A stretch of DNA of 59,924 bases, from IMG/VR virus record IMGVR_UViG_3300035682_000040, positions 1-59,924 of that record; one strand, given 5' to 3'. The notes under the pieces are model-generated. The model was not told where the DNA came from. It was given only the letters and a program-made list of their open reading frames with translations, and searched no databases. The position numbers and the translations under genes are program-made. Positions 5,543 through 48,536 of this stretch are shown one piece after another. Source of the DNA: a virus (lineage: Duplodnaviria > Caudoviricetes). Each line of letters starts with the position of its first letter. Positions within the stretch are counted from its first letter, which is position 1.

Positions 5543-5558
5543 GTTGTAAATGTTTTAA

Positions 5559-5590
5559 AACGCCTGTACACTGTATGGGCGTTCTTACTT
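5559..5590 (+). terminator. Stem-loop after the tail tube gene (terminator-like; overlaps a TTGTAA-N17-TACACT promoter-like sequence at 5544-5572)
   Basis: AACGCCTGTAC-ACT-GTATGGGCGTT followed by CTTACTT. Confidence 0.5.
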
Positions 5591-5612
5591 AAATAAATAG
5601 GATATAATTATA

Positions 5613-6385: not shown

Positions 6386-6387
6386 AT

Positions 6388-9987: not shown

Positions 9988-9989
9988 TA

Positions 9990-10337
9990 ATGCCACAAGC
10001 AATGCCTTTAACCACAAAAATCTCTGAAAATAGTACTAAAAGTTCAGCTTATAAAACTTTAATATCTAGATTTGGAGATGGTTATGCTCAAAGAGCTCCT
10101 GATGGTACTAATAGTAAAATTGATATTTGGGATTTAAAATGGTCGCCATTAAACCTAACAGACCGAAATATTGTGGTTGCCGTATTTGATGCAGTAGGTG
10201 GTTGGGATTATATAACATGGACACCTCCTGGAGAGTCAGTTTCTAAGAAATTTATAATGACTTCAGGTTATAGTGAAAGTTATGTATCAACTTATTATAA
10301 TATTAGTGTAAAACTAGAACAAGTTTTTAATGTATAA
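9990..10337 (+). CDS. Minor tail protein, lambda gpM-like (distal tail)
   Basis: FGDGYAQRAPDG.N, WTPP and LEQVF motifs. Confidence 0.85.
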   Translation: MPQAMPLTTKISENSTKSSAYKTLISRFGDGYAQRAPDGTNSKIDIWDLKWSPLNLTDRNIVVAVFDAVGGWDYITWTPPGESVSKKFIMTSGYSESYVSTYYNISVKLEQVFNV

Positions 10338-10348
10338 TTGGAATAATC

Positions 10349-10879
10349 ATGCCAGATAGTATTGATTTAGAAGTCTTAAAAGCAAATGTATCAGCTTATA
10401 TTGAATTATTTGAAATGGATTGTACTGCAATTAGCGGTATAGGAATTGTATATTATTTAACCACAAATAAAACTGCTGTTAGTTTTGGCAATATTACTTA
10501 TAACCCTTTTCCAATGAGTATAGAGGGGGTTCAAAGTAGTGCTGATGGTGCTCCAGCAAGACCAACAATTCAAATGTCTAATATTGCTTCTAATGTAGGG
10601 GCATTAATGAAATTTATAGGTTCATTAGCTTTTTTACATGAGGATTTAATTGGTGTTAAAGTTACTTATATTAGAACTTTTGCTAGTTATTTAAATAGTG
10701 CTGCTAGAATATCTGCACCGCCTTTAAAATATACTATAGCAAAAAAGTTAGAACATAATAAAATAGCATTAAAATTTGAACTTAGAAGTCCATTGGATAA
10801 AGAACGAGCATATTTACCTAAACGTCAAATGCTTAAAAGGGATTTTCCAGGATTAGGTGTTAATAAACGAGTAGGTTAA
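10349..10879 (+). CDS. Minor tail protein, lambda gpL-like (short form)
   Basis: IELFEMD, Y.PFP, RPT..SN, V.YIRTFA.YL, FEL.SPLD, LPKRQ. Confidence 0.8.
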   Translation: MPDSIDLEVLKANVSAYIELFEMDCTAISGIGIVYYLTTNKTAVSFGNITYNPFPMSIEGVQSSADGAPARPTIQMSNIASNVGALMKFIGSLAFLHEDLIGVKVTYIRTFASYLNSAARISAPPLKYTIAKKLEHNKIALKFELRSPLDKERAYLPKRQMLKRDFPGLGVNKRVG

Positions 10880-11599
10880 ATGCAATTATCACAACAACAA
10901 TTTAATGAAGTTTCTACCCATACGTTAAATTGTTATCCCAATGAAATGTGTGGTATATTAGTAGACGATACTTTTATACCTATTCCTAATATTAATAAAG
11001 AACCTGAGAATAATTTTACATTATGCCCAGTTACTTTAGTTAAATATCTTGGTAAAATACAAGCTATAATTCATAGTCATTGTAGGGATTTAAAAGCTCC
11101 TGAAATATTAGATCTTCGTACACCCTCATATAATGATATATTAGGTCAAAAGAAAAGTAAACTTCCTTGGTTAATTGTTAGTTGTGAAGGAATCAATGTA
11201 ACTTATCCCTTACAAATTCCTAGAATAAAAAATAAGGATTATTTAGAAAGACCTTTTATTTGGTTTATTAATGATTGCTATAGTTTGGTACAAGACTATT
11301 ATTTATTTGAACTAGCTATTGATTTACCAGACCATAAAGCTGATGAAGATTTTTGTAATATGAGAAAACTGCATAACCTATTTGATGATTATATTAAAGA
11401 ATATGGTTTTATAGAATTACCTGCTACTGTAGAATTACAAAAAGGTGATTTACTTTTATTAGATAATGCAGGTCACACAAAAAATCATTTAGGTATTTAT
11501 GAAGATGGCTATATACTACATCAAGATATGTTGTCTTTAAAAGAAAAAGTTGAACATTTTATAGGTCGTATTCATAAGGTTTTAAGATATGATAATTAA
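10880..11599 (+). CDS. Tail tip assembly protein, lambda gpK-like (JAB + NlpC/P60)
   Basis: YPNEMCG, HSH...PS..D, DCYSLV.DYY, NHLGIY, ILHQ. Confidence 0.85.
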   Translation: MQLSQQQFNEVSTHTLNCYPNEMCGILVDDTFIPIPNINKEPENNFTLCPVTLVKYLGKIQAIIHSHCRDLKAPEILDLRTPSYNDILGQKKSKLPWLIVSCEGINVTYPLQIPRIKNKDYLERPFIWFINDCYSLVQDYYLFELAIDLPDHKADEDFCNMRKLHNLFDDYIKEYGFIELPATVELQKGDLLLLDNAGHTKNHLGIYEDGYILHQDMLSLKEKVEHFIGRIHKVLRYDN

Positions 11600-12191
11600 A
11601 GTATATGAAGATTTAGAGAACTTTGATGAATTTGATTTTAATGTTGATAATATGAGGGATATATTATCAGGTATTAAAATGAATAAAGGAGTAGAATATT
11701 CTGATAATATTTTATATCAAAATTGCCAATATATTTTAACTTCTAATAACCCTGAAGTTACGCCTATTAGTTTAAATGAGGAAACCTTTTTATCTGAAGT
11801 ATGTGGTTATGATAACCTATATATAATTCCTGAGACTTCAGGTGGTGTCCCTGCGCCACTTGTTGCTGTAATAATGGCTTACGGTGCTTCCATTGCTGCT
11901 ACCGTAGGGCTTAGTGTTAGTGCAGGTGTTACATTAGGTACAGCAATGGTATTTGCTGCTCAGGTTATAATATCAGTAGGAGTATCAATGGCTTTAAATG
12001 GTATCATGCAACTTATATCACCAACTACTTCATTTTCATCTGATCCTGCTCAAGCTCAACAAATGCAAAGTTCCTTATTTAATGGAGCTCCTATAATCAG
12101 GGAACAAGGTGGTAGTGTACCTTTATGGTATGGCTCAAGTTATATCGGTGGAGTTTTAATTAGTTCAAGTATTTCTACTGCAGAAGGTTAA
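11589..12191 (+). CDS. Tail assembly protein, lambda gpI-like
   Basis: Hydrophobic middle segment; S.LFNG....EQG..VPL.YG...GG.LIS. Confidence 0.8.
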   Translation: MIIKVYEDLENFDEFDFNVDNMRDILSGIKMNKGVEYSDNILYQNCQYILTSNNPEVTPISLNEETFLSEVCGYDNLYIIPETSGGVPAPLVAVIMAYGASIAATVGLSVSAGVTLGTAMVFAAQVIISVGVSMALNGIMQLISPTTSFSSDPAQAQQMQSSLFNGAPIIREQGGSVPLWYGSSYIGGVLISSSISTAEG

Positions 12192-12194
12192 TAA

Positions 12195-15100
12195 ATGGAA
12201 GAAAATGAGTTAATATCAGGTTCTGGTGGTAAAGGTGGTAAAGGCGGACATGTACCTGTAGAATCCAATGATACTTTAAAAAGTAAACAAGCTATTAAAT
12301 TACTTTTTGCTGTAGCGGAAGGTGAAATAACATCTATTGATGATATTCTTCTTGATAAAGTATCCATATCAAGTTATAAAGCTTCCTATGCTTGGAAAAG
12401 TGGTTTATCAAATCAAACTGTTATTCCTGGATTTATTGATACAGAATCACCGTTACCTACATTTACTTCTGTTGCACTTGTTAAAGCTACTCTTTTTACT
12501 TATAACATTGATTCATTAGTTGATGCAGTTAGACTAACTTTAGGTTTAGATAGTTTAAGGCAAATACAAGAAAATGGTGATATGACGGGATTTACTGTAT
12601 CTATTGAAATTTATACTAAAGCTACTACAGTTGCAGGTCTAGTTTTATATAAAACCAGTACTAAAAAAGGTAAAGCTTCCAACCCTTATAGTTGGGATGT
12701 TATAGTTGATAGACCCACTAATTATGTTCCTGGAACTAATTGGTCAGTTGTTGTTAATAGACTTAGTGACGATGATACCAGTGTAAAAAGGAATTCTGTT
12801 ACTCGTTTAATTGCTATAACACAAATATATCATAAACAATTAACCTATCCTGGAACTGCTTTAGTTGCAATTAGTTTAGAGGATGCTAATGAATTTGGAG
12901 GTCGAGTACCTCAAATTCTTATAAAAGGTAAGGGACGAAAAGTATTAGTTCCTTCTAATTATAATCCTGTTACTAGAGTTTATACTGGTACTTGGAATTT
13001 ATCCATGAATTCTGTAAAGCAATTTAGTGATAATATAGCTTGGGTTTTGTATGATGTATTGCATGACCCTACTTGTTTAGATATAAATTCTGCTGATATT
13101 GATAAAACTTCATTTTATTTACTTAGCCAATATGCTGATACCTTAATACCTGATGGTTATGGCGTTAATATACCTCGTTATTCTATTGGTAATCAATTTT
13201 TTTCTAGAGATAATGTACCTACGTTTATTCAAAATTTGTTATCAATTTGTAATGGAATGCTTACTGAAAATGAATTTGGACAGATTAAAGTTATTTTTGA
13301 CCAACCTAATTTATCAGCAAGTAGATTAGTAACCAATGCTAATGTAGTAGCAGGTTTATTTAATTATAGTTCCAATGATTTAGAAAATAGGTATTCTCTT
13401 GTAAATGTTACTTATAATAATTATTTAAGCTATAACGAAACCGATACTGCAACTTGGTCAGATAATGCTTTAATAACTCGGTATGGTTTACAAACTTCTG
13501 ATATTGTACTTCCTGGATGTATTTATGAAGCTCAAGCTATAAGAAAAGCTCGTTGGGCTGTTTACACTAATGCTATAACCACGAAACTTCTTACATTTAA
13601 TGTAATGTTTGAGGGTTTATCATTCAGAAACGGTTCCATTATTAAAGTAATGGATAGTGATAATGCTGGTGTTAATCAGCATGGTATTATTAAAGGTACA
13701 AGTGTTTTAACAGGTAATACTACTATTGTTATGGATAGAAGTATTACCCTTGCTGCTCAAACCTATACTGTTACTTTTTATGGAATTGATGGGGTTACTT
13801 TATACAATAAAACTTTACTACAAACCAATTCTACAGTATCCAGCATTAGTTTTGTGGGTACTGAAGTTCCTTTATTAGGTAGTACTTTTATACTTTCAGG
13901 TACAGTTACTCCTCAATTATTTAGAGTTGTTGGTAATGCTAAAAATAGTGATGATAGTTATACTATATCCTGTTTAGTTTACGATACTGACAAATTTACA
14001 TATATAGATCAAGGTATTACTTTAGGTGGTGGTACTGGCGATTTTATAAATATTGATGGTTTTTATGCACCTGCGGTTTTTAATTTAGCAGTTAGTCCTA
14101 TATCTTCATCAAACGGAGTTAATAATAATATTCAACTTGATGTTCATTGGGATTGGGATTTATTACATGCTCAAAAATATAAAGCTACTTTTCAAGCTAC
14201 ATGGATAAGGGATAATACCGATATAAAAGAAGTAAAGGAGATTACTGGTAATAGTTTTGATATAAATGGTGCTGTTCCAGGAACTTATGATATTACAGTG
14301 TGGGCAATTAATCCTTTTTCAGGTATTAAATCAACTCCTGCTACTTTAAGTTATTCCTATAGAACTACTGCTGGTAATTCAACTTTATTACCTCCTGTTA
14401 ATGCTAGGGTATCCGGTACAGTTGGTTTAATTTATAACACTCCTGCCTTATCATTGTTATTTGACTATAATACCCTTAATGATAATGTTTCGGATAGTTT
14501 ATTGGACTATGTTGTTGAACTTTGGACCTTAACTGGTACAACTAAAGTTGGAACTTATGTGGTTAAGCCGAACTTATTATTTGGTAGTACTTTTAATTTT
14601 CCATTTTTAGAAAATTTAGCTATATTTGGTGCATCAACTAGAAGTTATATTATTAAACTGTATAGTAGAGATTTAACTGGTTTTGTTTCAACTGCTTATG
14701 CAGTTACCGTTAATAATACTGTTCCTGTTCTTCAATCATTTACAATACTTTCAGGTGTTTCATCTGTTTATATTAAAGTTACTACAACTCCTTATGAAAT
14801 AGATACTGCTGGCTATGAAGTACATAGAAGTTTAACTACAGGTTTTACTCCTGGAGTAGGTACATTAGTTTATGATGGTCTTGATACTTATATAACCCTT
14901 AATGTTCCTGACACTCAAACTTATTACTATAGGATTGCTGCTTATGATGACTTTGATAAAGTTGGTCTAACTTATTCAAGCCAACAATCAAATACTGCAT
15001 TAACTACAGAGGCTATTACTTGGTCTAAGACAGGTTTAGTTTTTTCAGTAGGTACTACAAATCAATTAACTTGGACGGCAGGTACTATAATTAAGTCTGG

Positions 15101-18047
15101 AACTACTACTTATAGTGGTGTTGTGGCTGGGAATGCTACTTGGACAACTGGAACCCTTTATGCTTATTTTAATCCAGGACTTTCAGCTACGATAATTCAA
15201 ACTACAACTTCATTAAGTGTGGCAGTAGGAATAGGTTGTTTTCCTATAGCCACATATACGGGTGGTGCAGTTACTAATATTAAAGGTGGTACTGGTGATG
15301 CCTTTATCTCAGGCAGTCAAATTATTGCTGGTACAGTTGGTGCAAGCCAAATAATTGCTGGTTCTATTGTGGCTAGTTTGCTTGATGTAAATAATGCAGT
15401 TATAACTGGTGAAGCACAGATAGCAAGTGCTGTTATTACTAATGCTGCTATTAAAGATCATATTCAAAGTAGTAACTATAACCCTACTGCTCATACAGGT
15501 TGGAAACTAGATAAAGTAGCTAATATGATTACTACTTATGGAGGTTTACAAATACTTGATAGTACTGGAGCTACGATACTATCGTCTGGTACTTCTCCAA
15601 CTTGGAACTGGGATAATATTATTGGTCCTGGTATACCTGCCGATAACGCAACAAGAAATGTATTTAAAGGTAATTGGTCATCTGCCACAGTCTCATATGT
15701 AGTCGGAGATATTGTCTTAGATACTCTTGGTTATGGCTGGTCTTGTATTTTAGCCCATACATCAAGTGCTTCTATTTTAACACCTGTGTACCCAATAACC
15801 GCCAACACCTACTGGACGCTATATGTTGTTAAAGGTACAGATGGCGCTGAGGCTTCTAACTATGCCTTAAGTTTATCCTCTTCTGTAATAAGCAAAAGTG
15901 TTTTAAATGTATTAACGCCCACAAGCAGTACAGCGAAAATTTATAAAACCACTGGAACAGCTTCACCTGTTCTTTATGCTGGTAGATTTATAATAGCCAC
16001 CTCGTCAGATGGTACGACCTATACCGATGTTTATACCTCTTCCGCTGATGAAAGTTCTAAAGCTTATATAATACCTGTAACAGCTAAAACTATAAGAGTG
16101 AGAGCTTATTTAGCTGGTGGTGTTACTACATTACTTGATGAAGAAGTTATAACTATTGTTACTGATGGCTCTAGTGGTATTGACTCTGTCAATAATATCG
16201 TTGCTGTGTTATCTAATGAAAACCAAAGTATTCCTGCCGATAATGCGGGTGTTACTGGTGTTTTCAGTGCGGTATCCACTATGTCTGTTTATAACGGTGC
16301 TGTGGATGACTCAGCGAACTGGACTTATGCTAAGGTTGATAGTAATACTACTTCCACTATCACGGGTGCAGTTGCTACTGTTACTGCCTTATCTGCGGAT
16401 AGCGGTACTGTAACTATAACTGCAACACGGTCTGCCGCTGCTCAGGTTAATATATTATCAGGCAGTGAAACTTTTGACGCTACTCAAGCTTGGTATGACC
16501 CCGCATCTTTAGGCTGGACTGCTTCTTATGCTTCTACATTATCCAACATACCTGCACCTAATGGAGCATTAACCGCTAGAAGGATAGTGACCGGAGCAGG
16601 TTTAGTACTATTCTATAGAAAAGGGAATATAACATTCCCCGCTGGTCAATATTCAGTCAGCACTTATGTATATGTACCCACTCAAGCTGGAATTAATAAT
16701 TGGAATGTTGGTAATGATTTTGCCGATGCTGAGGCTGCTGGTGGAACTGTTTATACTGTGTTTGATAAGTGGGTTAGGTTTGAAAATACACTAACAACTA
16801 CCTTATCAAGAGGTTTCCTTGATTGGAATATCAATATGAATGGGACTGGCTTGCCTGCTGGTGCTGTTTTCCATGTATGGGGTGCAATGTGCAAAACAGG
16901 AGCTGCTTCAGGCAAATATATTCCTTATCTTGCTCCAGTATCTAAAGTGTTTACTCTTGCTAAAGCTAAAGCTGGAACTAATGGAGCAACTGGTTTAACA
17001 GGTTCAGCGGGAACTAATGGTACTAATGGTACTAATGGCGCCACTCTTTATACTTGGCTTAAGTATGCAGACACCACTACAACAGGTATGTCTGATTTAC
17101 CTGCTGGCAAAACCTATATGGGTATTGCTTATAATAAAACTGTTGCCACCGAGTCAACCATCTACACAGATTATGATTGGAGCTTAATCAAAGGCACTGA
17201 TGGTATTAATGGTCTAGCTGGAACAAATACTTATACTTGGGTTAAGTATGGTACTTCTGCCGCTGGAGCTGGTTTAAACGACAGCCCTACAGGAATGACT
17301 TATATAGGACTCGCGTTTAATAAAACCACTGCAACTGAATCAGGTACTCCAGGAGATTATACTTGGTCTTTAATACAAGGGGCGGCGGGTACTAATGGAA
17401 CTAATGGAACTAATGGGGCAACTGGAGCAACTGGGGCAACAGGTCCCGCTGGTACGACCGACTGGGCAGGTTTGGTTAATAAACCCACTTTTGGTAATTT
17501 TGCTTATTTAAGTTCGATTGATAGTGCCAATATCTCGACTTATATTGCTGCAGCTGCCATAGGTACTGCTTATATAGCCAATGCAGCCATTACCAATGCT
17601 CAAATAGCTAATCTTTCAGTTAGTACAGGTAAAATAGCTAATCTTGCCGTTGATAGTCTGCAAATTGCTGGTAATGCGGTCACTGTGCCTTTATCAGCAT
17701 ATACCGCTGCGAGTATAGTAACATCTAGTTTAGGGTTAGTGGTTCAAACTTTAACAACTGGTATTATTAGTACTACAATAGCGTCTAACCTTTGTATTAA
17801 TTTTGGACTTTGTGGTCGTGGAACTCCCGGAGGGACGTGGGGACAAGTTGCTACCCTAAAAGCAGGAACAACCGCAGTCTATAGCGCAACATGGATTCAT
17901 GAAAATGCGGACGACCAAGCTGCAAGTGGTTGTATTAATTATACTTTACCTGCAAATACCTCAGTACAGTTTACTTTAGTATGGACAAGTCCTTCTAGTA
18001 TACCTGTGTCAAATAGATTTATTAACATAATGACAACTAAACGATAA
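12195..18047 (+). CDS. Central tail fibre / tip attachment protein, lambda gpJ-like (1950 aa)
   Basis: GSGGKGG start, EGEI, YPGTAL, KG.KV.VPSNY.P.TR.Y.G.W, DN.AW; Ig/FN3-like, collagen-like and C-terminal IANAAITNAQI repeats. Confidence 0.9.
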   Translation: MEENELISGSGGKGGKGGHVPVESNDTLKSKQAIKLLFAVAEGEITSIDDILLDKVSISSYKASYAWKSGLSNQTVIPGFIDTESPLPTFTSVALVKATLFTYNIDSLVDAVRLTLGLDSLRQIQENGDMTGFTVSIEIYTKATTVAGLVLYKTSTKKGKASNPYSWDVIVDRPTNYVPGTNWSVVVNRLSDDDTSVKRNSVTRLIAITQIYHKQLTYPGTALVAISLEDANEFGGRVPQILIKGKGRKVLVPSNYNPVTRVYTGTWNLSMNSVKQFSDNIAWVLYDVLHDPTCLDINSADIDKTSFYLLSQYADTLIPDGYGVNIPRYSIGNQFFSRDNVPTFIQNLLSICNGMLTENEFGQIKVIFDQPNLSASRLVTNANVVAGLFNYSSNDLENRYSLVNVTYNNYLSYNETDTATWSDNALITRYGLQTSDIVLPGCIYEAQAIRKARWAVYTNAITTKLLTFNVMFEGLSFRNGSIIKVMDSDNAGVNQHGIIKGTSVLTGNTTIVMDRSITLAAQTYTVTFYGIDGVTLYNKTLLQTNSTVSSISFVGTEVPLLGSTFILSGTVTPQLFRVVGNAKNSDDSYTISCLVYDTDKFTYIDQGITLGGGTGDFINIDGFYAPAVFNLAVSPISSSNGVNNNIQLDVHWDWDLLHAQKYKATFQATWIRDNTDIKEVKEITGNSFDINGAVPGTYDITVWAINPFSGIKSTPATLSYSYRTTAGNSTLLPPVNARVSGTVGLIYNTPALSLLFDYNTLNDNVSDSLLDYVVELWTLTGTTKVGTYVVKPNLLFGSTFNFPFLENLAIFGASTRSYIIKLYSRDLTGFVSTAYAVTVNNTVPVLQSFTILSGVSSVYIKVTTTPYEIDTAGYEVHRSLTTGFTPGVGTLVYDGLDTYITLNVPDTQTYYYRIAAYDDFDKVGLTYSSQQSNTALTTEAITWSKTGLVFSVGTTNQLTWTAGTIIKSGTTTYSGVVAGNATWTTGTLYAYFNPGLSATIIQTTTSLSVAVGIGCFPIATYTGGAVTNIKGGTGDAFISGSQIIAGTVGASQIIAGSIVASLLDVNNAVITGEAQIASAVITNAAIKDHIQSSNYNPTAHTGWKLDKVANMITTYGGLQILDSTGATILSSGTSPTWNWDNIIGPGIPADNATRNVFKGNWSSATVSYVVGDIVLDTLGYGWSCILAHTSSASILTPVYPITANTYWTLYVVKGTDGAEASNYALSLSSSVISKSVLNVLTPTSSTAKIYKTTGTASPVLYAGRFIIATSSDGTTYTDVYTSSADESSKAYIIPVTAKTIRVRAYLAGGVTTLLDEEVITIVTDGSSGIDSVNNIVAVLSNENQSIPADNAGVTGVFSAVSTMSVYNGAVDDSANWTYAKVDSNTTSTITGAVATVTALSADSGTVTITATRSAAAQVNILSGSETFDATQAWYDPASLGWTASYASTLSNIPAPNGALTARRIVTGAGLVLFYRKGNITFPAGQYSVSTYVYVPTQAGINNWNVGNDFADAEAAGGTVYTVFDKWVRFENTLTTTLSRGFLDWNINMNGTGLPAGAVFHVWGAMCKTGAASGKYIPYLAPVSKVFTLAKAKAGTNGATGLTGSAGTNGTNGTNGATLYTWLKYADTTTTGMSDLPAGKTYMGIAYNKTVATESTIYTDYDWSLIKGTDGINGLAGTNTYTWVKYGTSAAGAGLNDSPTGMTYIGLAFNKTTATESGTPGDYTWSLIQGAAGTNGTNGTNGATGATGATGPAGTTDWAGLVNKPTFGNFAYLSSIDSANISTYIAAAAIGTAYIANAAITNAQIANLSVSTGKIANLAVDSLQIAGNAVTVPLSAYTAASIVTSSLGLVVQTLTTGIISTTIASNLCINFGLCGRGTPGGTWGQVATLKAGTTAVYSATWIHENADDQAASGCINYTLPANTSVQFTLVWTSPSSIPVSNRFINIMTTKR

Positions 18048-18050
18048 TAT

Positions 18051-18455
18051 ATGATAGCTATAATATATAAAATAAATACAGGTGAAATTTTAAGAACTAT
18101 TAATATGCCTGATGATTTTATACCTTATCAGGTTGGTGAGGGTGAAGCATTTCTTGAAACTCAAGTAACGATTAATGATGGTATTCATTATGTTGATAAT
18201 GATGTTGTATTGGAGAAAGTGATTCAACCAATACTACTGAACAAAACAACTATTAATGCAGATGGAATAGATAAGTTAATATTTTCTAACGTACCACTTG
18301 GTTCTATTAAAATAGATAACCTGCAAACAAAAGAAACCATATCAGGAACTATAGAGGGTACTGATACATTCTCAACTACTATTTCTGGTACTTATAAAAT
18401 CAAAATAATATCATTCCCCTATCTTGATTTTGAAACCACCATAGAGGCTACCTAA
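18051..18455 (+). CDS. Tail tip-associated protein
   Basis: IY...TGEI.R motif following gpJ. Confidence 0.55.
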   Translation: MIAIIYKINTGEILRTINMPDDFIPYQVGEGEAFLETQVTINDGIHYVDNDVVLEKVIQPILLNKTTINADGIDKLIFSNVPLGSIKIDNLQTKETISGTIEGTDTFSTTISGTYKIKIISFPYLDFETTIEAT

Positions 18456-18736
18456 TGGCATTTATCATAACTAAACCTTTAGCAGACCAAAAGCAAGAGT
18501 TTACACTTAAAGTTAATTCTGATGCTTATGATAAAATAACTTTACTTTATCCTATTTATCTTCAACTTAATATTGAACGTGAATCCGATGAAACTGCTAA
18601 AACTACTATGCACACCTATATAGATGCAATTAGAGGGTATGCTAATGTGGCTAAAGCAAGTATAACCGCTGCTACTTCAATTTCGGATATTCGTTCCGCT
18701 TATTCAACTTTCACTACAGATTTAGCCACAATTTAA
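18455..18736 (+). CDS. Tail fibre assembly-like protein
   Basis: I...YP.Y.Q.N...YIDAIR pattern; TAATG coupling. Confidence 0.5.
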   Translation: MAFIITKPLADQKQEFTLKVNSDAYDKITLLYPIYLQLNIERESDETAKTTMHTYIDAIRGYANVAKASITAATSISDIRSAYSTFTTDLATI

Positions 18737-24945: not shown

Positions 24946-25154
24946 TAACTATCCTTTTTATTAAAAAACCTTCTTATTATAAAACTACGAATAATGGAAG
25001 CTAATGTAAACCAAAGGGTTATCCAAATATTATCCATAAAATTAATATTGATATTATAAAAAGGAAATATTGTTAATTGAACTATTAAAGAAAAAATAAA
25101 TCCGGTAAGGGTATTAATCAAAGATTCAATAAAACTATTTTTTACAGTCTGCAT
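24945..25154 (-). CDS. Small two-TM membrane protein
   Basis: Q...S.IES..N...GF...S.IRS..IRR.FN pattern. Confidence 0.7.
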   Translation of the reverse strand: MQTVKNSFIESLINTLTGFIFSLIVQLTIFPFYNININFMDNIWITLWFTLASIIRSFIIRRFFNKKDS

Positions 25155-26080
25155 TAAAATAATTCCTGTACACGCATAAAATCCATATTACATCCTTTTT
25201 CATTATGTTCTTTCATAATTTCACCCATTGACCACAAATTATAGGCAGCTCTACTTTGATAAGTAGTACTTAATCTTTCATAGTTAAAACCACCTTTATT
25301 AATTATCTTTAATATGTGGTTACGCTCTTCTTCAGCAAAATTACAAAGATGTTGACCTTTAGTATGACGACTAGGTGATTTATCTGAAAGTGATATATTT
25401 CGATGTTCTTTAGTTACAATCATTCCAAATGAAGCTGATTGTATCCATAATGATGAATCCACTGAGTACCATGGATACCGTTCAATTAGTTTATCCGATG
25501 TAATACCGAAACCATGTACTTTAATACGAGGGTTTCCGCTACCATCGACAAGGTTATTTGACCATACTCTATCCAACCAATTCATAAGTTGAGTAATACT
25601 ACCACCAACCATTCCGCCTAATGAAATATAGGGATAATATTTTATATAATAATCCAAATATTTTTCATCTTCACCAGCATGAAAACATGGTATAGCTTTA
25701 ACACCATGCTTCCACATTCTATTAAGGTTATGATAAGTTAATTCCGCATCACCAATACCGTCCATTCCAGCAGCCATTAAGGTATCATCATCCTTAGCTA
25801 TAATATCAATATTTCTAAGAATATAATTACAATAATCAGAAATAGGGATGTCAACACCTAAAGTAAAAGCTGAGAATGCACCTGAGTCAAGAAATATTTG
25901 TGCATTATCAGCCCTCATTTCATCTACAAATTTTTGTTTATTAACATAATGATAACTTTCAAGAATAGGACCTTTTGCTGCATTACAAACTTTTTCTTGT
26001 TCGTGCAATTCTAATTCAGTATGTTTATTTTGACCTTTACAATATTGGTTAGTATAGACCGCAGCGTTATAAATTTTCAT
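25154..26080 (-). CDS. dpdA: DNA 7-deazaguanine transglycosylase (TGT-like DpdA)
   Basis: FLDSGAFS, P.FH.GE, LGGMV, VHGFG, WYSVDSS.W; sits in a que/folE cluster. Confidence 0.9.
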   Translation of the reverse strand: MKIYNAAVYTNQYCKGQNKHTELELHEQEKVCNAAKGPILESYHYVNKQKFVDEMRADNAQIFLDSGAFSAFTLGVDIPISDYCNYILRNIDIIAKDDDTLMAAGMDGIGDAELTYHNLNRMWKHGVKAIPCFHAGEDEKYLDYYIKYYPYISLGGMVGGSITQLMNWLDRVWSNNLVDGSGNPRIKVHGFGITSDKLIERYPWYSVDSSLWIQSASFGMIVTKEHRNISLSDKSPSRHTKGQHLCNFAEEERNHILKIINKGGFNYERLSTTYQSRAAYNLWSMGEIMKEHNEKGCNMDFMRVQELF

Positions 26081-26970
26081 TATTTAATTTGATCTAAGAA
26101 TTCACGCCTAGCTGAACTTTCATCTAAAATAACACCTTTGAGAGCTGTGGTTACAGTATGATGCCCTTGTTGGCAAGTACCCCTAGATTCCATACATAAA
26201 TGCCTAGCCTTTATACTAACACCAACACCTAACGGTTGCAAGTGTTCAAATAAACAATCAGCAATCTGTGAAGTCAAACGCTCTTGTACTTGTAATCGTT
26301 TGGCGTACATTGATACAATTCTTGATAACTTTGATAGTCCAACAATTCTACCATTTGGTATGTACGATATAGTACATGTGCCAAAGAAAGGAGCGAGATG
26401 ATGTTCACAATGACTATAAAAAGGAATATCTTTGACTGTAACCATCTGGTCATAAGTTTCAGCTCCATCTTCAAATACTTTTAAAATATCGGATGCACTT
26501 TGAGTATAACCAGCACACCATTCTTTCCAAGCTTTAGCTACACGTTTAGGAGTTTCAAGTAAACCACCCCTAGCGGGATCTTCACCTATGTATTGCAATA
26601 GCCTAGTAATATTGTTCTCAATACCACCTACAGCATCACCTTCCCATGGAAATACTATCCATTTATCCATTAAATCATAATTTTCTGATTTATCAATTAA
26701 AGCAAAGAAAGGTAAAGTGGGGTTACTATCTAAAAACTCACTCCAAGTAGCACCTGAATCTATAATATCATCTATAATAAAATCAGCTTCTTCAGGGCTA
26801 TCAACTATTTTGTACCATCCTGGATTTGTTGCCATTAAAGCATAAGCAGCAGGTATTCCACCTCTAGGTACTGGGTACATTTTTCTGTATGAATTAGAAA
26901 TTTCATTATTTAAATCATACGCTAATTTAAAAACATCCTTGTTACTTAGGTAAACGCTATTATTCTCCAT
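26080..26970 (-). CDS. folE: GTP cyclohydrolase I with an N-terminal purine-PRTase-like domain
   Basis: GL.ETPKRVAK, FYSHCEHHLAPF, GLSKLSR, RLQVQERLT, HLCMESRG; N-terminal VPRGG, IIDDIIDSGAT, WIVFPWE. Confidence 0.92.
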   Translation of the reverse strand: MENNSVYLSNKDVFKLAYDLNNEISNSYRKMYPVPRGGIPAAYALMATNPGWYKIVDSPEEADFIIDDIIDSGATWSEFLDSNPTLPFFALIDKSENYDLMDKWIVFPWEGDAVGGIENNITRLLQYIGEDPARGGLLETPKRVAKAWKEWCAGYTQSASDILKVFEDGAETYDQMVTVKDIPFYSHCEHHLAPFFGTCTISYIPNGRIVGLSKLSRIVSMYAKRLQVQERLTSQIADCLFEHLQPLGVGVSIKARHLCMESRGTCQQGHHTVTTALKGVILDESSARREFLDQIK

Positions 26971-27391
26971 AAGTCACCGAACATTTTCTTGTTTCATCAA
27001 TAGTAACTGAAGTAACTATAATTCCTGTATCTAATAATTGCATTGGTGCAATAACATTAACTAGATATTCAGCCATATTTTCAGCAGTTGGATTAAAAGG
27101 AACTGCAACTACTCCTTCAGGATCAATATCCTTTAAAAATGGTAAATTACCATCTTCCGCCCAAGCCAAAAACTTATGATCCCAGTTATCTTCTAACCAC
27201 ATACAGAGTTTAGATTTAACTACACCGAAATCTATTACACGACCTACTGAATCCAGTGTATTGTTTTCTGCTTCACAAACAAAATGAACACGGTAATTAT
27301 GCCCATGTAAGAAACGGCATTTACCTTCATGCCCAACAACTCTATGACCACAACTTATGTCATGGTATCTTTTTACTTGATATTTACTCAT
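26960..27391 (-). CDS. queD: 6-carboxy-5,6,7,8-tetrahydropterin synthase
   Basis: GHR..GHEGKC..LHGHNY, IDFG, NPTAEN.A, ET. Confidence 0.93.
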   Translation of the reverse strand: MSKYQVKRYHDISCGHRVVGHEGKCRFLHGHNYRVHFVCEAENNTLDSVGRVIDFGVVKSKLCMWLEDNWDHKFLAWAEDGNLPFLKDIDPEGVVAVPFNPTAENMAEYLVNVIAPMQLLDTGIIVTSVTIDETRKCSVTYGE

Positions 27392-27654
27392 TTTAATTCC
27401 ACTATATGTCTATTTGTCATTAAAGCTACTTTAATGTAGCTTGCATTTTTAAATTCTGAAGCAAGTGCTAATGCTACATCTTCCATAAACATAAGTTTAC
27501 CTGAAATAAGCTTTCTCATACGTTTACGAACTTCATATAATTCTACAAATTCATTTTCAAAACCCAAAGTTATATAAAGAAAATCTGGTAGTTTATTTAC
27601 TGGGCAAAAAGTTACAATAGGCAACCAATGTGAAATTAGGACATGTTGATCCAT
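27388..27654 (-). CDS. QueF-like T-fold protein (probably QueF-L type), 88 aa from MDQHVL
   Basis: CPVNKLPDF matches the QueF catalytic C-P-x4-D; VE and FMED align with QueF VESKS and FHED but the NADPH motif is degenerate; GGAG RBS before 27654. Confidence 0.7.
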   Translation of the reverse strand: MDQHVLISHWLPIVTFCPVNKLPDFLYITLGFENEFVELYEVRKRMRKLISGKLMFMEDVALALASEFKNASYIKVALMTNRHIVELK

Positions 27655-28043
27655 AATAAACTCCATAATATTGTTAGTACAAGACCTGTAAACCATGAAG
27701 TGGAATACCACTCCCATTCATTATTGCCTAAACTAAACCTTTTATTTTTAAAAGGGTATAACAAAGGTGGAGCCCAAGTTGTACCATGAGTAGGTATATC
27801 CAAAAGTAAATGGCTTAATAAAGCAAAAAATAGTAAACCATCACCCATATAAAACCAATAGGAATAGCCAAGTACCGTAGTGAAGATAAGGCTATGTGTA
27901 ATATCATACAGTTTAGTAGGGGTAAGCATACGTTTAGCCCCTAGCACTAAATCTGGTATAACTGCTACACAAGCTCCTAATATAGGTTTACCGTAATATG
28001 TACCTGTAGCTGCTCCAGCTACAGCATGACTAAAAATATCCAT
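27636..28043 (-). CDS. YdjM-like membrane metal-dependent hydrolase (likely start MDIFSH)
   Basis: SH, PDL, THS, SH..LD..TH, LLYPF motifs with TM segments; TAATG-coupled to queC. Confidence 0.7.
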   Translation of the reverse strand: MDIFSHAVAGAATGTYYGKPILGACVAVIPDLVLGAKRMLTPTKLYDITHSLIFTTVLGYSYWFYMGDGLLFFALLSHLLLDIPTHGTTWAPPLLYPFKNKRFSLGNNEWEWYSTSWFTGLVLTILWSLLWINMS

Positions 28044-28804
28044 TATTTTTTTAAACAAATATAATTTGAACTTAATGGTAATTCCATCAATCCTTCCTGC
28101 CAAGCACGAACAACTAAAGGATCGGGAAAACCTGATTTTTCAAAACCATCTGCACGAAGTACATTGGCATGATTCATATCAGTGGGCGGATACTTACCAT
28201 CATAACTTGTGTGGCTATAAGCTAGTGCTTCCCAAGCTCCAGGAGTAGTATGAGCAAGTTTTACAGTTTCAGCTTTAGTTAAACACATTAAGGGAGCTAC
28301 AATTCTTAATGCACCTACTTTTAAAGGTTCTAAACCTAATGCAATATTAGCAGTATCTTCAAATAAAGTTCTAAAGTTATCAGTACAATCAGGGTAATTA
28401 GCATTGTCTTCTTGACATATACCTATATAAATATGGCTACAACCTAATGAAACTGCTCTATTAACTGCAATAGTTAGAAACAGCATATTACGCATTGGAA
28501 CAAAAGTATCCTCAATCCTATTACCGATAACTGATTCCATTTGTTCAGCACTTTCGTAACGCTCAAGTCCTATACCACCTTGCGTTAAAGGGGAGGTTGA
28601 AACTAAAGTATTTCTAATATTGATAATTTCAAAACTATCCACTTCAGCTAGAATGGCAACTTCACCAGCAGCTTTTAATTCAATAATATGATTCTGCCCG
28701 TAGTCAAAACTAATCGCATGGACTTCATCAAATTGTTCTTTTGCAAGAAATAAACAGGTTGTTGAATCCTGCCCACCTGAAAGGACAACTAAACATTTAC
28801 TCAT
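28043..28804 (-). CDS. queC: 7-cyano-7-deazaguanine (preQ0) synthase
   Basis: SGGQDS PP-loop, FDYGQ.H..E, FVPMRN, YPDC, PL..LTK. Confidence 0.93.
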   Translation of the reverse strand: MSKCLVVLSGGQDSTTCLFLAKEQFDEVHAISFDYGQNHIIELKAAGEVAILAEVDSFEIINIRNTLVSTSPLTQGGIGLERYESAEQMESVIGNRIEDTFVPMRNMLFLTIAVNRAVSLGCSHIYIGICQEDNANYPDCTDNFRTLFEDTANIALGLEPLKVGALRIVAPLMCLTKAETVKLAHTTPGAWEALAYSHTSYDGKYPPTDMNHANVLRADGFEKSGFPDPLVVRAWQEGLMELPLSSNYICLKK

Positions 28805-29511
28805 TATTCAACTCCAATTATTTTATGGATTTGTAGGTTTAAAATATGCCCAAACTTTAAACAGCTATCTATAACAGCAGTTAGATTTTTACAGTTTTCA
28901 GTTTCATCATACGAATCTTCTGGTTGCAAATAAGTTAAACCAATAAAATCATTTCTGGGTCTAGCAACTTTAAATGAATTAACAGGAAAACCTAATACTG
29001 CATTTGGCAATCCATCATCTTCATTTACGTCATTGTGGTTAAGAACATATTTATAAGCACATGCTTCTATTTCTATACGTTCATTAATTTTTATGGTCTT
29101 TGGTGAACAAACAATATAACAACCATGTCTAGCAAATATATTAGTAGCCCAAAATCTATCGGTTGGTACTATACTTCCATTTGTTTCAACTTGAACATAA
29201 AAGTCTTCTTCAACTAAAAGTCTTAACAACGTAGCAAGATTTTGTCTAAAAGGTTCACCACCAGTAATAACAACTAAACCTTTCTTTTGCCAATCCTGAA
29301 CAATTTTTACAATTACTTCAGGTTTTAAAGAAGTTCTGTGAGTAGTGTAATCTGTATCACAATTTGGACATTGTAGATTACAACCAGCTAGACGAATAAA
29401 CACACAAGGCGTACCAGAAAAAGGTCCTTCACCTTGGATTGTTTTAAATATTGAATGTACTTCTAATAGGGAATTATCTGAACGATGTTCAGATTTTTGA
29501 TTATTTTTCAT
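28804..29511 (-). CDS. queE: 7-carboxy-7-deazaguanine synthase (radical SAM)
   Basis: F.TIQGEG, RLAGCNLQCPNCDT, ITGGEP, ETNG, SPK, LQ.HK. Confidence 0.95.
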   Translation of the reverse strand: MKNNQKSEHRSDNSLLEVHSIFKTIQGEGPFSGTPCVFIRLAGCNLQCPNCDTDYTTHRTSLKPEVIVKIVQDWQKKGLVVITGGEPFRQNLATLLRLLVEEDFYVQVETNGSIVPTDRFWATNIFARHGCYIVCSPKTIKINERIEIEACAYKYVLNHNDVNEDDGLPNAVLGFPVNSFKVARPRNDFIGLTYLQPEDSYDETENCKNLTAVIDSCLKFGHILNLQIHKIIGVE

Positions 29512-45424: not shown

Positions 45425-45601
45425 CTATTCTCCTTCAACTAAGACTTGGGTTTCACCAAGCCACTCTTCGGTTATCTGCCATTTGGCAGATTGTTTTTTA
45501 GCAAGAGCAATCAATTCATGCAGATCGCCAATGGCGATGTCGAACCAGTCGCCTTCCATATTAAAGTATTCTTCGTTGATCCAGACCCATAATGTACACA
45601 T
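45425..45601 (-). CDS. Small hypothetical protein, 58 aa (MCTLWVWINEEYF...)
   Basis: Not in ORF track; AGGAG RBS; downstream of the TTGACA promoter. Confidence 0.7.
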   Translation of the reverse strand: MCTLWVWINEEYFNMEGDWFDIAIGDLHELIALAKKQSAKWQITEEWLGETQVLVEGE

Positions 45602-45651
45602 GTTTTACTCCTAGAAATGGTTAGGTTGGACACAATGCCCAACCAAGCTAT

Positions 45652-45680
45652 ATATTAACACACGTTAATGTTCTTGTCAA
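45652..45680 (-). promoter_or_regulatory. Strong sigma70-type early promoter
   Basis: TTGACA-N17-TAATAT with TGn. Confidence 0.75.
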
Positions 45681-45683
45681 TAT

Positions 45684-45869
45684 TTAAATTATCCGCAACG
45701 TCAAAAGCATCGGATACAGTTTGGTTCCAAGAGCATGGAATTCAAGTTCTGCAAGGTTGTTTTGGTCTAAACATTTAGCACTATCCAAAAGACGTAAGGC
45801 TTGCGCCTCAGTCATCTTGTCTTGGACGAACTCGGCAATCTCAATTAATTGTTCTAAATTGAATTTCAT
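45684..45869 (-). CDS. Hypothetical protein (likely start MKFNLEQL)
   Basis: AGGAG RBS before the internal ATG. Confidence 0.65.
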   Translation of the reverse strand: MKFNLEQLIEIAEFVQDKMTEAQALRLLDSAKCLDQNNLAELEFHALGTKLYPMLLTLRII

Positions 45870-45879
45870 TCTTATTCTC

Positions 45880-46008
45880 CTAAAATTGATAAAGATAAAC
45901 AGCAATGGTAGACAGAAATAGTGCAATAGAAAGAGCAGCCATTCCAACCTCAATAAGATTGAATAACTGTCTTTTTTGTGCAGACGGAAGGTTTTTGTAG
46001 TCTTTCAT
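45880..46008 (-). CDS. Small membrane protein, 42 aa (MKDYKNLPSAQ...)
   Basis: Not in ORF track; GGAG RBS; C-terminal TM helix. Confidence 0.6.
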   Translation of the reverse strand: MKDYKNLPSAQKRQLFNLIEVGMAALSIALFLSTIAVYLYQF

Positions 46009-46065
46009 TTTGTACTCCGATTAGACATAGCGATATTGCTATTTTATACAGTCTAAAATAAACCG

Positions 46066-46098
46066 TATAAAATAGCAGGGCAATCAAGCCCTGCTATT
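46066..46098 (-). terminator. Intrinsic terminator after the sigma54-driven gene
   Basis: Perfect 11-bp stem AATAGCAGGGC-N6-GCCCTGCTATT, followed by TTAT on the minus strand. Confidence 0.7.
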
Positions 46099-46106
46099 AT
46101 TAGCCC

Positions 46107-46577
46107 TTATGCAGTGTGGTTTTTTAACCACTTTTTGTAATTATTGATTTCAATACCAATATTGGCAACATTTACTGGCTTACCATTGGCACAATACAAA
46201 CCCATGCTATCAATAGCACCTATATACAGCTTAGTGACTGAAGTTTGAGTAATACCCAACTCAATGCAAGCTTGCCGAATCATATAACCGCTGGTGCCTG
46301 CTTTTAACTCACTATCGCCATAACCCTTGCTATTGCCAAAAGCATTCAGTTTTGATGCTTTTGGCTTATTAGGCGTTACAGTTGGTTTGATGCCATTCAT
46401 TTCATTTTGTGCCGCTTGAATGGCAAGTTCACGGTAGCTTGCCATGTCATTTGCAAGCTTAGTTGCCTTTACTGTATGGGCGTAAACAATAGCCCTTGTT
46501 TTAAGTGTTGGTAACTTGCCATTGATAACCAGTGGCAAGTTTACTGATTGAATTTTTTTAGTTGCTAATTTAGCCAT
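46107..46577 (-). CDS. Basic protein, putative DNA-binding regulator (156 aa from MAKLAT)
   Basis: AGGTG RBS; Lys-rich; C-domain resembles that of 29583..30089; first gene after the sigma54 promoter. Confidence 0.65.
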   Translation of the reverse strand: MAKLATKKIQSVNLPLVINGKLPTLKTRAIVYAHTVKATKLANDMASYRELAIQAAQNEMNGIKPTVTPNKPKASKLNAFGNSKGYGDSELKAGTSGYMIRQACIELGITQTSVTKLYIGAIDSMGLYCANGKPVNVANIGIEINNYKKWLKNHTA

Positions 46578-46633
46578 GATATACACCTATATATAATTGA
46601 TTGACACTAACACGCGTTAGCTACCTTAGGTAT

Positions 46634-46650
46634 AGCAATGACCATGCCAA
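46634..46650 (-). promoter_or_regulatory. sigma54 (RpoN) -24/-12 promoter
   Basis: TTGGCATGGTCATTGCT versus consensus TGGCACG-N4-TTGCW with exact GG-N10-GC spacing; predicted start about 46623. Confidence 0.85.
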
Positions 46651-46677
46651 CTATACCAAATATATTAATACCTTATT

Positions 46678-46856
46678 AATCAATTACTTATAATAACATA
46701 CTATCATACTAGGTTATTAGATTGCACCACATTAGTGCATATCACGCACCATAATAGTGCTTGTCACTGTAACATATTGATTTATATACATTAATTAATC
46801 ACCTCGTGCACCAAATCAGTGCAGGTTTTAACAATACCTTATTAATCAATCACTTA
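46678..46856. promoter_or_regulatory. Three IHF-consensus sites (WATCAANNNNTTR)
   Basis: AATCAATTACTTA (46678-46690), AATCAATATGTTA (minus strand, 46770-46782), AATCAATCACTTA (46844-46856). Confidence 0.75.
46723..46823. promoter_or_regulatory. Three NtrC-consensus enhancer sites
   Basis: TGCACCACATTAGTGCA (46723-46739), CGCACCATAATAGTGCT (46745-46761), TGCACCAAATCAGTGCA (46807-46823); consensus TGCACY-N5-RGTGCA. Confidence 0.8.
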
Positions 46857-47032
46857 TCCCCCCATGCCGGATTATTTTGAAAAAAGTGGGCGGTCTACCT
46901 CCCTACCACCAGACTCCCATTTTAGCTACCTAACACTTGTAAGGTACTATTCCAATATCCCTATTCTCAAAAATATGGATGAACCCTATTTAGCCGCCTA
47001 ACACATGTAACCCAACTAATCTCACGCACTCC

Positions 47033-47061
47033 TTGCATTGTGGTCATTATTGTGCTACTGT
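47033..47061 (+). promoter_or_regulatory. Candidate sigma70-type promoter for the dcd-lysis-packaging arm
   Basis: TTGCAT-N17-TACTGT with TGn; two boxes upstream at 46931 and 46999. Confidence 0.5.
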
Positions 47062-47095
47062 ACCCAAAATTCCTAATCCCAATACCCTATATCCT

Positions 47096-47653
47096 ATGAG
47101 CGTTATATCTTATTCTGAATTATGTGAACTTGTTGAAGCTGGTGTTATCAATGCTAAACCCAGTCAAATTAATGGAAGTTCAATCGACCTAACATTAGAC
47201 AATATCATTCGCACTGAGTCACCTAACACTCACGGCAAGCCAATTGACTTAGCCATTAAAGAAAACATCATCACCGCAGCGATTGACCTTAACAATAGCC
47301 CCTATCATTGTGGTTACATCATGCAACCAAACGAAATGATTCTAGCCTCATCCTTTGAAGTTTTTAACTTACCACATAATATCAGTGCTGAATATAAACT
47401 AAAATCCAGTATGGCGAGGAATGGCTTAGAACATCTTAATGCTGGCTGGTGTGATGCAGGTTGGACTAATTCTAAATTGACACTTGAACTTAAAAACGTA
47501 AATCAATTTCATAAACTATTATTAACTGTGGGTATGCCTATAGGTCAGGTTATATTCTACAAACATGAACCTGTACCTGTAGATAAGTCATACTCTATTC
47601 GTGGTCAGTACAACAACCAAACTGAAGTTACTGAATCAAAAGGAATCAGGTAA
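47096..47653 (+). CDS. dcd: dCTP deaminase
   Basis: Q.N..SIDLTL, KSS.AR.GL, AGW.D.GW...LTLEL.N, I.Q..F, Y...G.Y..Q. Confidence 0.88.
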   Translation: MSVISYSELCELVEAGVINAKPSQINGSSIDLTLDNIIRTESPNTHGKPIDLAIKENIITAAIDLNNSPYHCGYIMQPNEMILASSFEVFNLPHNISAEYKLKSSMARNGLEHLNAGWCDAGWTNSKLTLELKNVNQFHKLLLTVGMPIGQVIFYKHEPVPVDKSYSIRGQYNNQTEVTESKGIR

Positions 47654-47895
47654 TGGTAGATAGCAACGAGCAACGAGAATTAATTAGGCAGACTGTGAAA
47701 GAGACTTTACTTTCATTAGGTATTGAAGTAGACGATCCTATTAAAGTACAAAGGGATTTTCAGCATTTAAGGGAGTGGCGTGAAACTACTGAAGCCTTAA
47801 AGTCCAAAGGGTTAATGACGTTGTTTGGTGTAGTCCTAGCAGGTATTCTAGGGTTTATTTGGTTGGGGTTTAAAGGTTCATTGGGAGTTAAATAA
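47653..47895 (+). CDS. Single-TM protein, putative holin/antiholin
   Basis: C-terminal TM helix; TAATG-coupled to the endolysin. Confidence 0.5.
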   Translation: MVDSNEQRELIRQTVKETLLSLGIEVDDPIKVQRDFQHLREWRETTEALKSKGLMTLFGVVLAGILGFIWLGFKGSLGVK

Positions 47896-48392
47896 TGAAA
47901 GATATTTACGATGCTGATATTAAAAGGTTTCACAAAGAATATAATTTGCCGTTTGACTGGACTTTAGTAAAAGCTCAGTTGTTTCAAGAGTCGGGTTTAA
48001 ACCCTGAAGCTTGTAGCCCAGTGGGTGCTAAGGGTTTGGCTCAGTTTATGCCTGCTACTTGGGAAGAATACACTATTAAGTGTGGCTTGCCTGCTAAAAC
48101 TAGCCGTACTGATACTGTTGCTTCAATTCAATGCTGTGCTGCTTACATGAGGGCGTTAATTACGCAATGGAAAAGTAAAAGGACAGAGGTTGACCGCTAT
48201 AATTTAGCATTGGCTTCATACAATGCAGGTCTAGGTAACTTGCTGAAAGCACAGAAGATGGTTCATGGTGCTACGGATTATGCTACTATTATTTCAGCAT
48301 TGAAATTTGTTACTGGAAATGAAAATGCTTTACAAACTACAGATTATGTGGTTAAAATAAATGAGTTTCATAGATTATTAAATAAGAAGTAA
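47895..48392 (+). CDS. Endolysin, soluble lytic transglycosylase (SLT) family
   Basis: QESGLNP, SPVGAKGLAQFMPAT, ALASYNAG. Confidence 0.9.
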   Translation: MKDIYDADIKRFHKEYNLPFDWTLVKAQLFQESGLNPEACSPVGAKGLAQFMPATWEEYTIKCGLPAKTSRTDTVASIQCCAAYMRALITQWKSKRTEVDRYNLALASYNAGLGNLLKAQKMVHGATDYATIISALKFVTGNENALQTTDYVVKINEFHRLLNKK

Positions 48393-48536
48393 CTTAGAAT
48401 TGTGGTAACTGTAACCTTGGATACAGTCAGGATGAAATTAAATTTCCAGTTACCACACTTGTAGGTTGCGTTAAATAATAGACTTTAAAGACGTTAATTT
48501 AGTTAGCGTGACCTCAACTTATTATAGGAAACCAAA

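Follow-up and report, generated by a model that had tools for sequence, protein, structure and literature searches.

A conserved sigma-54-type promoter cassette with NtrC-type dyads and IHF-consensus sites upstream of a small gene in an uncultivated phage genome

Introduction

Enterobacterial promoters that depend on the nitrogen regulator NtrC and on sigma-54, such as glnAp2 and glnHp2, the latter also using integration host factor (IHF), are the closest described counterparts of the element examined here. A sigma-54 promoter carries a -24 GG and a -12 GC 10 bp apart in a TGGCAC-N5-TTGCW-like context, and its transcription requires rpoN and begins about 12 nt after the GC. The element lies upstream of a minus-strand gene, P0001, in the complete genome of an uncultivated tailed phage (IMG/VR virus record IMGVR_UViG_3300035682_000040, Caudoviricetes), which was analysed over its full 59,924 bp (about 35% G+C) and is hereafter called the window. 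It shares with glnAp2 and glnHp2 a -24/-12 element, 17-bp NtrC-type dyads roughly 100–140 bp upstream and an IHF site between them. In contrast to these bacterial promoters, the phage cassette has one dyad more, at -192, together with two additional IHF-type sites, stands in a virulent-type genome and would drive a phage gene without assigned function.

The prevailing view is that phages depend almost wholly on promoters that are either of sigma-70 type or phage-specific. Cyanophage genomes contain binding sites for NtcA, a CRP-family activator of cyanobacterial sigma-70 promoters, and these sites likewise wire phage genes to a host nitrogen-stress regulator, whereas the machinery proposed here is the NtrC, IHF and sigma-54 of a heterotrophic host. 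A different kind of likeness is offered by cosB of phage lambda, which combines terminase-binding repeats with an IHF site: the window, too, has repeated protein-binding sites interleaved with IHF sites near packaging genes, but its repeats are NtrC-type dyads that are distance-locked to the -24/-12 element and the downstream gene.

According to the available portions of the published accounts, phage YuA depends on host sigma-54, such use by phages is rare (PMC5053324, PMC10914365), and it is documented for this one phage (PMC5053324). YuA, a Pseudomonas phage of ~59 kb, has no RNA polymerase of its own and employs the sigma-54 of its host; in its database entry, three promoters within the structural region are marked as “-24/-12 consensus”. 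Unlike the window, that record carries no annotated enhancer or IHF architecture, and the YuA genome has 0 matches to a GCAC-N7-GTGC dyad. In the accessible part of a further report, a Pectobacterium phage protein shows only a weak HHpred likeness to sigma-54 (PMC7693777). A natural phage promoter with NtrC sites was not found among the titles and abstracts listed in literature searches, which is not proof of absence. The kind of promoter described below is textbook; as far as this title- and abstract-level search reaches, finding the whole unit in phages, seemingly across several lineages, is new.

Results and discussion

A -24/-12 element, three dyads and three IHF-consensus sites share one intergenic region

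The cassette is situated within a 518-bp divergent intergenic region (46578–47095). Judged by its conservation, it is a real cis-regulatory cassette under maintenance, and the segment is probably a host NtrC-type, IHF-assisted, sigma-54-dependent phage promoter. Its architecture suggests that the phage reads host nitrogen status through host proteins. The analysis establishes the motifs, where they lie, that they are conserved and that their composite marks bacterial nitrogen genes; from these we infer that sigma-54, NtrC and IHF bind, where transcription begins, that nitrogen exerts control and what P0001 does.

The sigma-54-type -24/-12 element, TTGGCATGGTCATTGCT, occupies 46634–46650 on the minus strand, with the -24 GG (46648–46647) and the -12 GC (46636–46635) separated by exactly 10 bp, as the first-pass annotation of this DNA had read it. 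The genome matches the consensus TGGCAY-N5-TTGCW at 2 sites where 0.17 would be expected, a number reached by 2 of 100 shuffled genomes. In a weighted consensus scan of both strands, a scoring against the genome background that the same annotation had foreseen, TTGGCATGGTCATTGCT is the single best match (15/16), and shuffled genomes hold a mean of 0.08 sites with this score. Taking the C of the -12 GC as position -12, the geometry places the predicted transcription start at 46623 on the minus strand, to which the distances below refer.

Upstream of the element lie three NtrC-type 17-bp dyads, namely TGCACTAATGTGGTGCA as written on the promoter strand (dyad 1; 46723–46739, centre -108), AGCACTATTATGGTGCG (dyad 2; 46745–46761, centre -130) and TGCACTGATTTGGTGCA (dyad 3; 46807–46823, centre -192). 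The first-pass annotation had claimed palindromes at about these three distances; they are indeed present and are the only matches to GCACY-N5-RGTGC in the 59,924 bases, at 46724, 46746 and 46808, where 0.12 matches are expected and 1 of 100 shuffles reaches 3. All three lie within the ~80–200 bp upstream at which activator sites were sought. The published NtrC box is given as TGCACCAnnnTGGTGCA, with conserved GCAnnA and TnnTGC, in the part of the source available (PMC8743547). Dyads 1 and 2 match both conserved halves of this box and dyad 3 matches one, and the window holds the box in two or more copies.

The three interleaved IHF-consensus matches claimed earlier are likewise where they had been placed: one between enhancer and promoter (46678–46690, plus strand; -67..-55), one between dyads 2 and 3 (46770–46782, minus strand; -159..-147) and a distal one (46844–46856, plus strand; -233..-221). 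The proximal and distal matches are parts of a 25-nt direct repeat (46667–46691 and 46833–46857). Genome-wide, the IHF consensus WATCAANNNNTTR is not enriched, with 12 matches against 8.35 expected and 15 of 100 shuffles reaching 12; three of the 12 fall in 46678–46856, interleaved with the dyads. All three of the genome's dyads and these three IHF matches are located within 180 bp, upstream of the promoter and on the correct side.

The cassette is conserved in diverged relatives

Nine P0001 homologues at 61–81% identity were found in a large protein collection, and DNA was obtained for two lake-metagenome contigs (L002 and L003) and for one contig of a metagenome-assembled genome (MAG), L004; all three were found through P0001 homology, with no motif used in selection. 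L002 and L003 read alike across L002 positions 1–420. A second route, through the neighbouring dCTP deaminase, led to 36 IMG/VR loci, three of which (L011, L019 and L022) show a -24/-12 element upstream on the opposite strand; these were picked on the -24/-12 pattern, and dyads, IHF sites and downstream genes played no part in the picking. Six lineages were compared: the window, L003, L004, L011, L019 and L022. No match was returned from phage records by tblastn of P0001 or by blastn of 45500–48500, no relative was found in IMG/VR with P0001 and then with a P0001 alignment, and a conserved 18-mer of the spacer occurs in 0 IMG/VR stretches.

The GG-N10-GC promoter is kept in all six lineages, with the 4–5 spacer bases varying. 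L002, L003 and L004 all retain TGGCATG-N4-nTGCT, in which TTGGCATG and TGCT keep the same spacing and the four bases between them differ (GTCA, GAAG, CTTA). The phage of L004, whose terminase large subunit (TerL) is 96% identical to that of the window and whose DNA is 76–89% identical over most of the genome, has the dyad TGCACTTGTATGGTGCA in three identical copies (-109, -131 and -192) and matches the IHF consensus at the window's two distal positions (-159..-147 and -233..-221); the distal site at -233..-221 is absent from L003. Among the dCTP-deaminase loci, the nearest dyad is centred at -108 in L019 and L022 and at -107 in L011, with further dyads at -204 and -224 (L019), -203 (L022), and -129 and -191 (L011). 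A dyad centred at -107 to -109 is found in five of the six lineages, i.e., in the window, L004, L011, L019 and L022. The IHF match WATCAANNNNTTR holds a fixed position between activator sites and promoter (-67..-55) in every lineage, exact in four (the window, L003, L019 and L022) and with one mismatch in two (L004 and L011, in the latter at -66..-54).

Relatives with the promoter differ in how far they preserve the published NtrC box: L004, L019 and L022 retain it, L011 does so in part, and other repeats take its place in L002/L003. The downstream small gene of L011 is a P0001 homologue (L004 versus L011, E = 1e-12); that of L019 and L022 bears a weak likeness to the P0001 family (E 0.002 or worse, in a six-sequence database). 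The expectation that the same architecture would recur near P0001 homologues is borne out by L004 and by L011, where the dyads are partly degenerate, and fails in L002/L003, which keep the -24/-12 element beneath other upstream repeats.

In an ungapped comparison of -125..+15 between the window and L019 or L022, the motif columns are 72% or 78% identical, respectively, and the other columns 29% or 33%, about the level for unrelated A+T-rich sequences. Because the motif columns stay alike while the remaining columns are at random-level identity, the motifs and their spacing are, on this comparison, maintained by selection and not by recent common descent.

L011 additionally contains another -24/-12-type element, TGGCATGATATGTGCT, on its minus strand at ~2028–2290. 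It lies upstream of the first one by 251 bp and has its own pair of ATGGCATAGGGTAG repeats where dyads would be.

The same composite marks nitrogen genes in bacteria and recurs in phage contexts

A composite pattern, defined as a dyad, 72–77 nt and then a -24/-12 element, was searched in bacterial genomes sampled from the order of the MAG that contains L004 (G001). It occurs in 46 of 401 genomes, and its backwards control in 0 of 401. Twelve of the bacterial loci were fetched, and ten downstream open reading frames (ORFs) were scanned, L104 and L107 being left out. Three of the ten encode glutamine synthetase, and the others are an NtrB-like histidine kinase, an amidase, solute-binding proteins (twice), a NirB-like reductase, a Gcw_chp protein and one ORF with no family. 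As judged from these loci, the composite in bacteria is a mark of the classical NtrC nitrogen regulon.

In IMG/VR, the composite matches 48 stretches (37 distinct strings) versus 5 for a control with the promoter half reversed. At positions that the pattern leaves unconstrained, the 37 strings follow the consensus: TGGCAY is followed by a purine in 34 of them, and box positions 7 and 11 are A and T, respectively, in 23 each. The contigs of L019 and L022 are two of these matches. Another, L071, stands at the edge of its IMG/VR contig, and since a bacterial glnA promoter (L110) has exactly the same box and promoter strings, it is probably host DNA, as some “viral” composite matches would therefore be. 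The four composite loci that were inspected, L053, L059, L084 and L089, are all in phage contexts: the module adjoins a scanned TerL gene in L053, L059 and L089, and also a portal gene in L053, while in L084 it is followed by a putatively TerS-like ORF resembling that of L059. Overall, the composite apparently recurs in several unrelated phage lineages, either before a small gene of DNA-binding type or beside a terminase/portal operon.

In these packaging-gene loci, near-perfect NtrC boxes with -24/-12 elements are found at L053 2400–2700, L059 550–800 and L089 3640–3900 and in L084; L053 bears a tandem array of three -24/-12 elements. Just downstream, L059, L084 and L053 have a G-rich element and a promoter that matches the sigma-70 consensus perfectly.

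The cassette most likely serves P0001 alone

P0001 (46107–46577, minus strand), the putatively regulated gene, encodes 156 residues without a Pfam or PHROG family. Its ribosome-binding site, AGGTG (46584–46588, minus strand), stands 6 nt before the ATG at 46577 and is kept in L003 and L004. Right after its stop codon, a rho-independent terminator (46062–46098, minus strand) is formed by a 10–11 bp stem followed by a T-run; the hairpin, with its G+C-containing stem, reaches a z-score of -6.5, and none of 200 shuffles folds equally well. In L003, L004 and L011, compensatory changes preserve the terminator. Since this strong, conserved terminator directly follows P0001, the promoter most likely serves P0001 as a single-gene cassette and not the leftward or early arm. 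The first-pass annotation had put the promoter at the head of the early arm, a claim that a strong terminator with compensatory changes directly after the first gene contradicts. A second, A+T-rich hairpin (46040–46070) lies directly 3' of the terminator and is kept in L003 and L004.

An AlphaFold model of P0001 has a mean predicted local distance difference test (pLDDT) score of 62 and is confident solely for residues 90–156. Foldseek of the model against the PDB gave no match at E<=0.001, and an Atlas search with P0001 gave no match scoring above 0.76. The C-terminal domain recurs at the N-terminus of HNH endonuclease or AAA proteins (P0024, P0026 and P0027). Because it there precedes HNH/AAA domains, a position common for DNA-binding modules, P0001 is probably a DNA-binding protein acting via its C-terminal domain (residues 90–156), in which case the cassette would couple a phage regulator to host nitrogen status.

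Host proteins would operate the cassette

In the reading we favour, 46578–46860 would constitute an enhancer-dependent sigma-54 cassette run wholly by host proteins. Host sigma-54 RNA polymerase would occupy the -24/-12 element (46634–46650, minus strand); under nitrogen scarcity, a phosphorylated host NtrC-type activator would bind the dyads at -108, -130 and -192; and host IHF would bend the DNA at -67..-55, allowing the activator oligomer to contact the polymerase and the promoter to open. The transcript, beginning at about 46623, would encode only P0001 and stop at the terminator right after the gene, whereby the cassette would couple the presumed regulator P0001 to the nitrogen status of the host. 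The NtrC/IHF/sigma-54 interpretation of the first-pass annotation thus gains from the geometry kept in diverged relatives and from the bacterial composite at nitrogen genes, and loses its early-arm role.

That annotation had also remarked on the lack of a phage-encoded sigma factor or enhancer-binding ATPase, and domain searches of the window agree, with no Sigma54_activat, HTH_8, Sigma54_DBD or Sigma70_r2 domain found. HTH_3 (cI/Cro-type) and Phage_integrase have no match in the window either, on which ground a lambda-type repressor/operator switch was rejected, and ten further small ORFs of the window have no Pfam family. P0001 was considered as the dyad binder and rejected, as the type of dyad is unrelated to how similar the P0001 proteins are: L003, at 80% identity, has other repeats, and far more distant homologues share the dyad type. 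Because of this independence, a conserved host factor would be the best-fitting binder, and a phage protein appears unlikely.

Several observations weigh against this reading. The relative closest by P0001 (L002/L003) has three CACCCAsTAAT(AA)GGTGyA units at -158..-100 instead of dyads, which match the window dyads at right half-site positions only, and two of the L011 dyads have degenerate right halves. In the window, a sigma-70-like extended -10, TGgTATAGT, is present at 46650–46658, just upstream of the -24 element. The start at 46623 is a prediction from motif geometry; in the one RNA library among four runs compared as contigs, pieces 90–99% alike are scattered over 44.6–48.3 kb, and such contigs show neither start, strand nor level. 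The remaining points concern the host. L004 is a 57.5-kb contig binned into G001, which is a proteobacterium by ClpB similarity and whose G+C equals that of the phage. Being proteobacterial with a phage-like G+C, G001 is a credible host, with binning as the link. In the genus of G001, however, Sigma54_DBD is found in 0 of 38 genomes and the activator AAA+ domain (E<=1e-20) also in 0 of 38, and the dyad-pattern matches in G001 number three, all on the phage contig. If this genus is the true host, the sigma-54 reading fails. The proteobacterial, sigma-54-bearing host proposed in the first-pass annotation was accordingly not confirmed: the sole clue, G001, is proteobacterial and belongs to a genus lacking sigma-54 and its activators.

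These host data carry the alternative that the module is conserved but operates without sigma-54. The host would then resemble G001, and another host or phage protein would bind the dyads and the TTGGCATG...TGCT element and thereby control a sigma-70-type P0001 promoter. Besides the binning of L004 in a G+C-matched genome whose genus has neither domain, the extended -10 of the window fits this alternative, and P0001, which itself looks DNA-binding, might be such a protein. However, that extended -10 is not conserved in L004, and no sigma-70-type hexamer pair is conserved across the window, L003 and L004, whereas GG-N10-GC is kept in six of six lineages. Moreover, the same composite with the same spacing is located at bacterial glnA promoters, the window lacks a cI/Cro-type HTH or integrase, and the binning of a virulent-phage contig is weak evidence of a host. 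No CRISPR spacer link between phage and host was found, and the phage TerL occurs in no other of the 38 genus genomes or of the 401 order genomes. We therefore rate a sigma-54-less module as unlikely. A 30-bp perfect match in G006 was examined as a CRISPR spacer and rejected, since it lies within a gene without flanking repeats. G001 (L004–L007) is titled “uncultured Neisseria sp.”, yet has ~36% G+C.

A sigma-54 promoter served by an enhancer-binding protein other than NtrC, whose signal would then not be nitrogen, is a further and rather improbable alternative. The identity of the activator is argued from motif likeness, and several dyads deviate from the conserved A7/T11 of the NtrC box. In addition, the repeats upstream of the -24/-12 element are of another kind in L003 and at one of the L011 promoters, pointing to exchangeable enhancers. 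On the other hand, window dyads 1 and 2 fit both NtrC-box halves, and three of the ten ORFs behind the bacterial composite are glnA, with most of the others being nitrogen-assimilation genes.

The repeats and IHF sites might instead serve packaging or replication, as a cos/pac site or an origin, with an incidental -24/-12 element. The region is the main divergent intergenic region and is ~1.7 kb upstream of terS, a conserved G+C-rich element (46888–46899) and a G-run adjoin it, and at lambda cosB terminase binding to repeats is IHF-assisted. Against this, the dyads keep base-exact distances from the -24/-12 element and the P0001-family gene even where neighbouring genes differ, and the G+C-rich element is absent from L019 and L022 and stands between the dyads and the terminase genes. 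Such a role, in place of the favoured sigma-54 promoter, is highly improbable. Finally, a chance co-occurrence of motifs in an A+T-rich intergenic region has a negligible probability, for although IHF-consensus matches are common in the genome (12 versus 8.35 expected), chance would hardly ever bring all of them together and the positions are kept in diverged relatives.

Implications of a probable sigma-54-dependent phage promoter

If the favoured NtrC-type reading is true, P0001 would remain silent unless a specific host signalling pathway is active, the signal being the nitrogen state of the cell, and through the cassette a shortage of nutrients in lakes could modulate how the phage develops. 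The cassette would also constrain the host to possess rpoN, an NtrC-type activator and IHF. More tentatively, and with somewhat less than even confidence, we propose that use of host NtrC, sigma-54 and IHF is a recurrent strategy of uncultivated phages of heterotrophic bacteria, that it makes the phage programme nitrogen-dependent, and that the enhancer is possibly exchangeable between relatives, which would plug the same promoter into different host signals. Such a strategy would be for heterotrophs what the NtcA sites of cyanophages are for cyanobacteria. The composite also offers a sequence signature for finding further cases, with 48 IMG/VR stretches matching.

Genome context and further elements of the intergenic region

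The record is a circularised assembly, and one ORF spans its ends. On the plus strand, genes extend from 47096 across the record end and on from 1 to 18736, including those for dCTP deaminase, SLT lysozyme, TerS, TerL and structural proteins; minus-strand genes extend from 46577 down to ~19000, including those for primase, ligase, helicase and DNA polymerase and a 7-deazaguanine (queuosine-type) set. No tRNA genes were found in the window. TerL shares 71% identity with its counterpart in Acinetobacter phage HD01 and 62–65% with those of Pseudomonas/Escherichia siphoviruses of Queuovirinae type; HD01, although closest by TerL, was dropped as a comparator because its gene order is different. No close relatives of the dCTP deaminase were found among the Queuovirinae-type isolates. 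Besides the likely source samples, other lake-water metagenome runs contain DNA near-identical to the window.

The 7-deazaguanine/queuosine-type genes at 25154–29511 encode a DpdA-like transglycosylase, FolE, QueD, QueC and QueE, a set that suggests modified phage DNA.

Within the A+T-rich spacer, a G-run on the minus strand (46857–46866) is conspicuous. The G+C-rich 12-mer GGGCGGTCTACC (46888–46899) recurs unchanged in L003 and L004 and is missing from all other fetched loci; it resembles the lambda cohesive-end sequence, and its region may be a candidate cos site. Nothing on cos could be read from the beginning of the phage Seurat record. CTAACAC / TTAGCyrCC repeats are found at 46607–46624, 46922–46936 and 46990–47004, and also at 47215–47229. 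One lies just 3' of the predicted start and two stand upstream of the rightward genes; the repeats are kept in L003 and L004 and may be candidate sites for a phage regulator, perhaps P0001.

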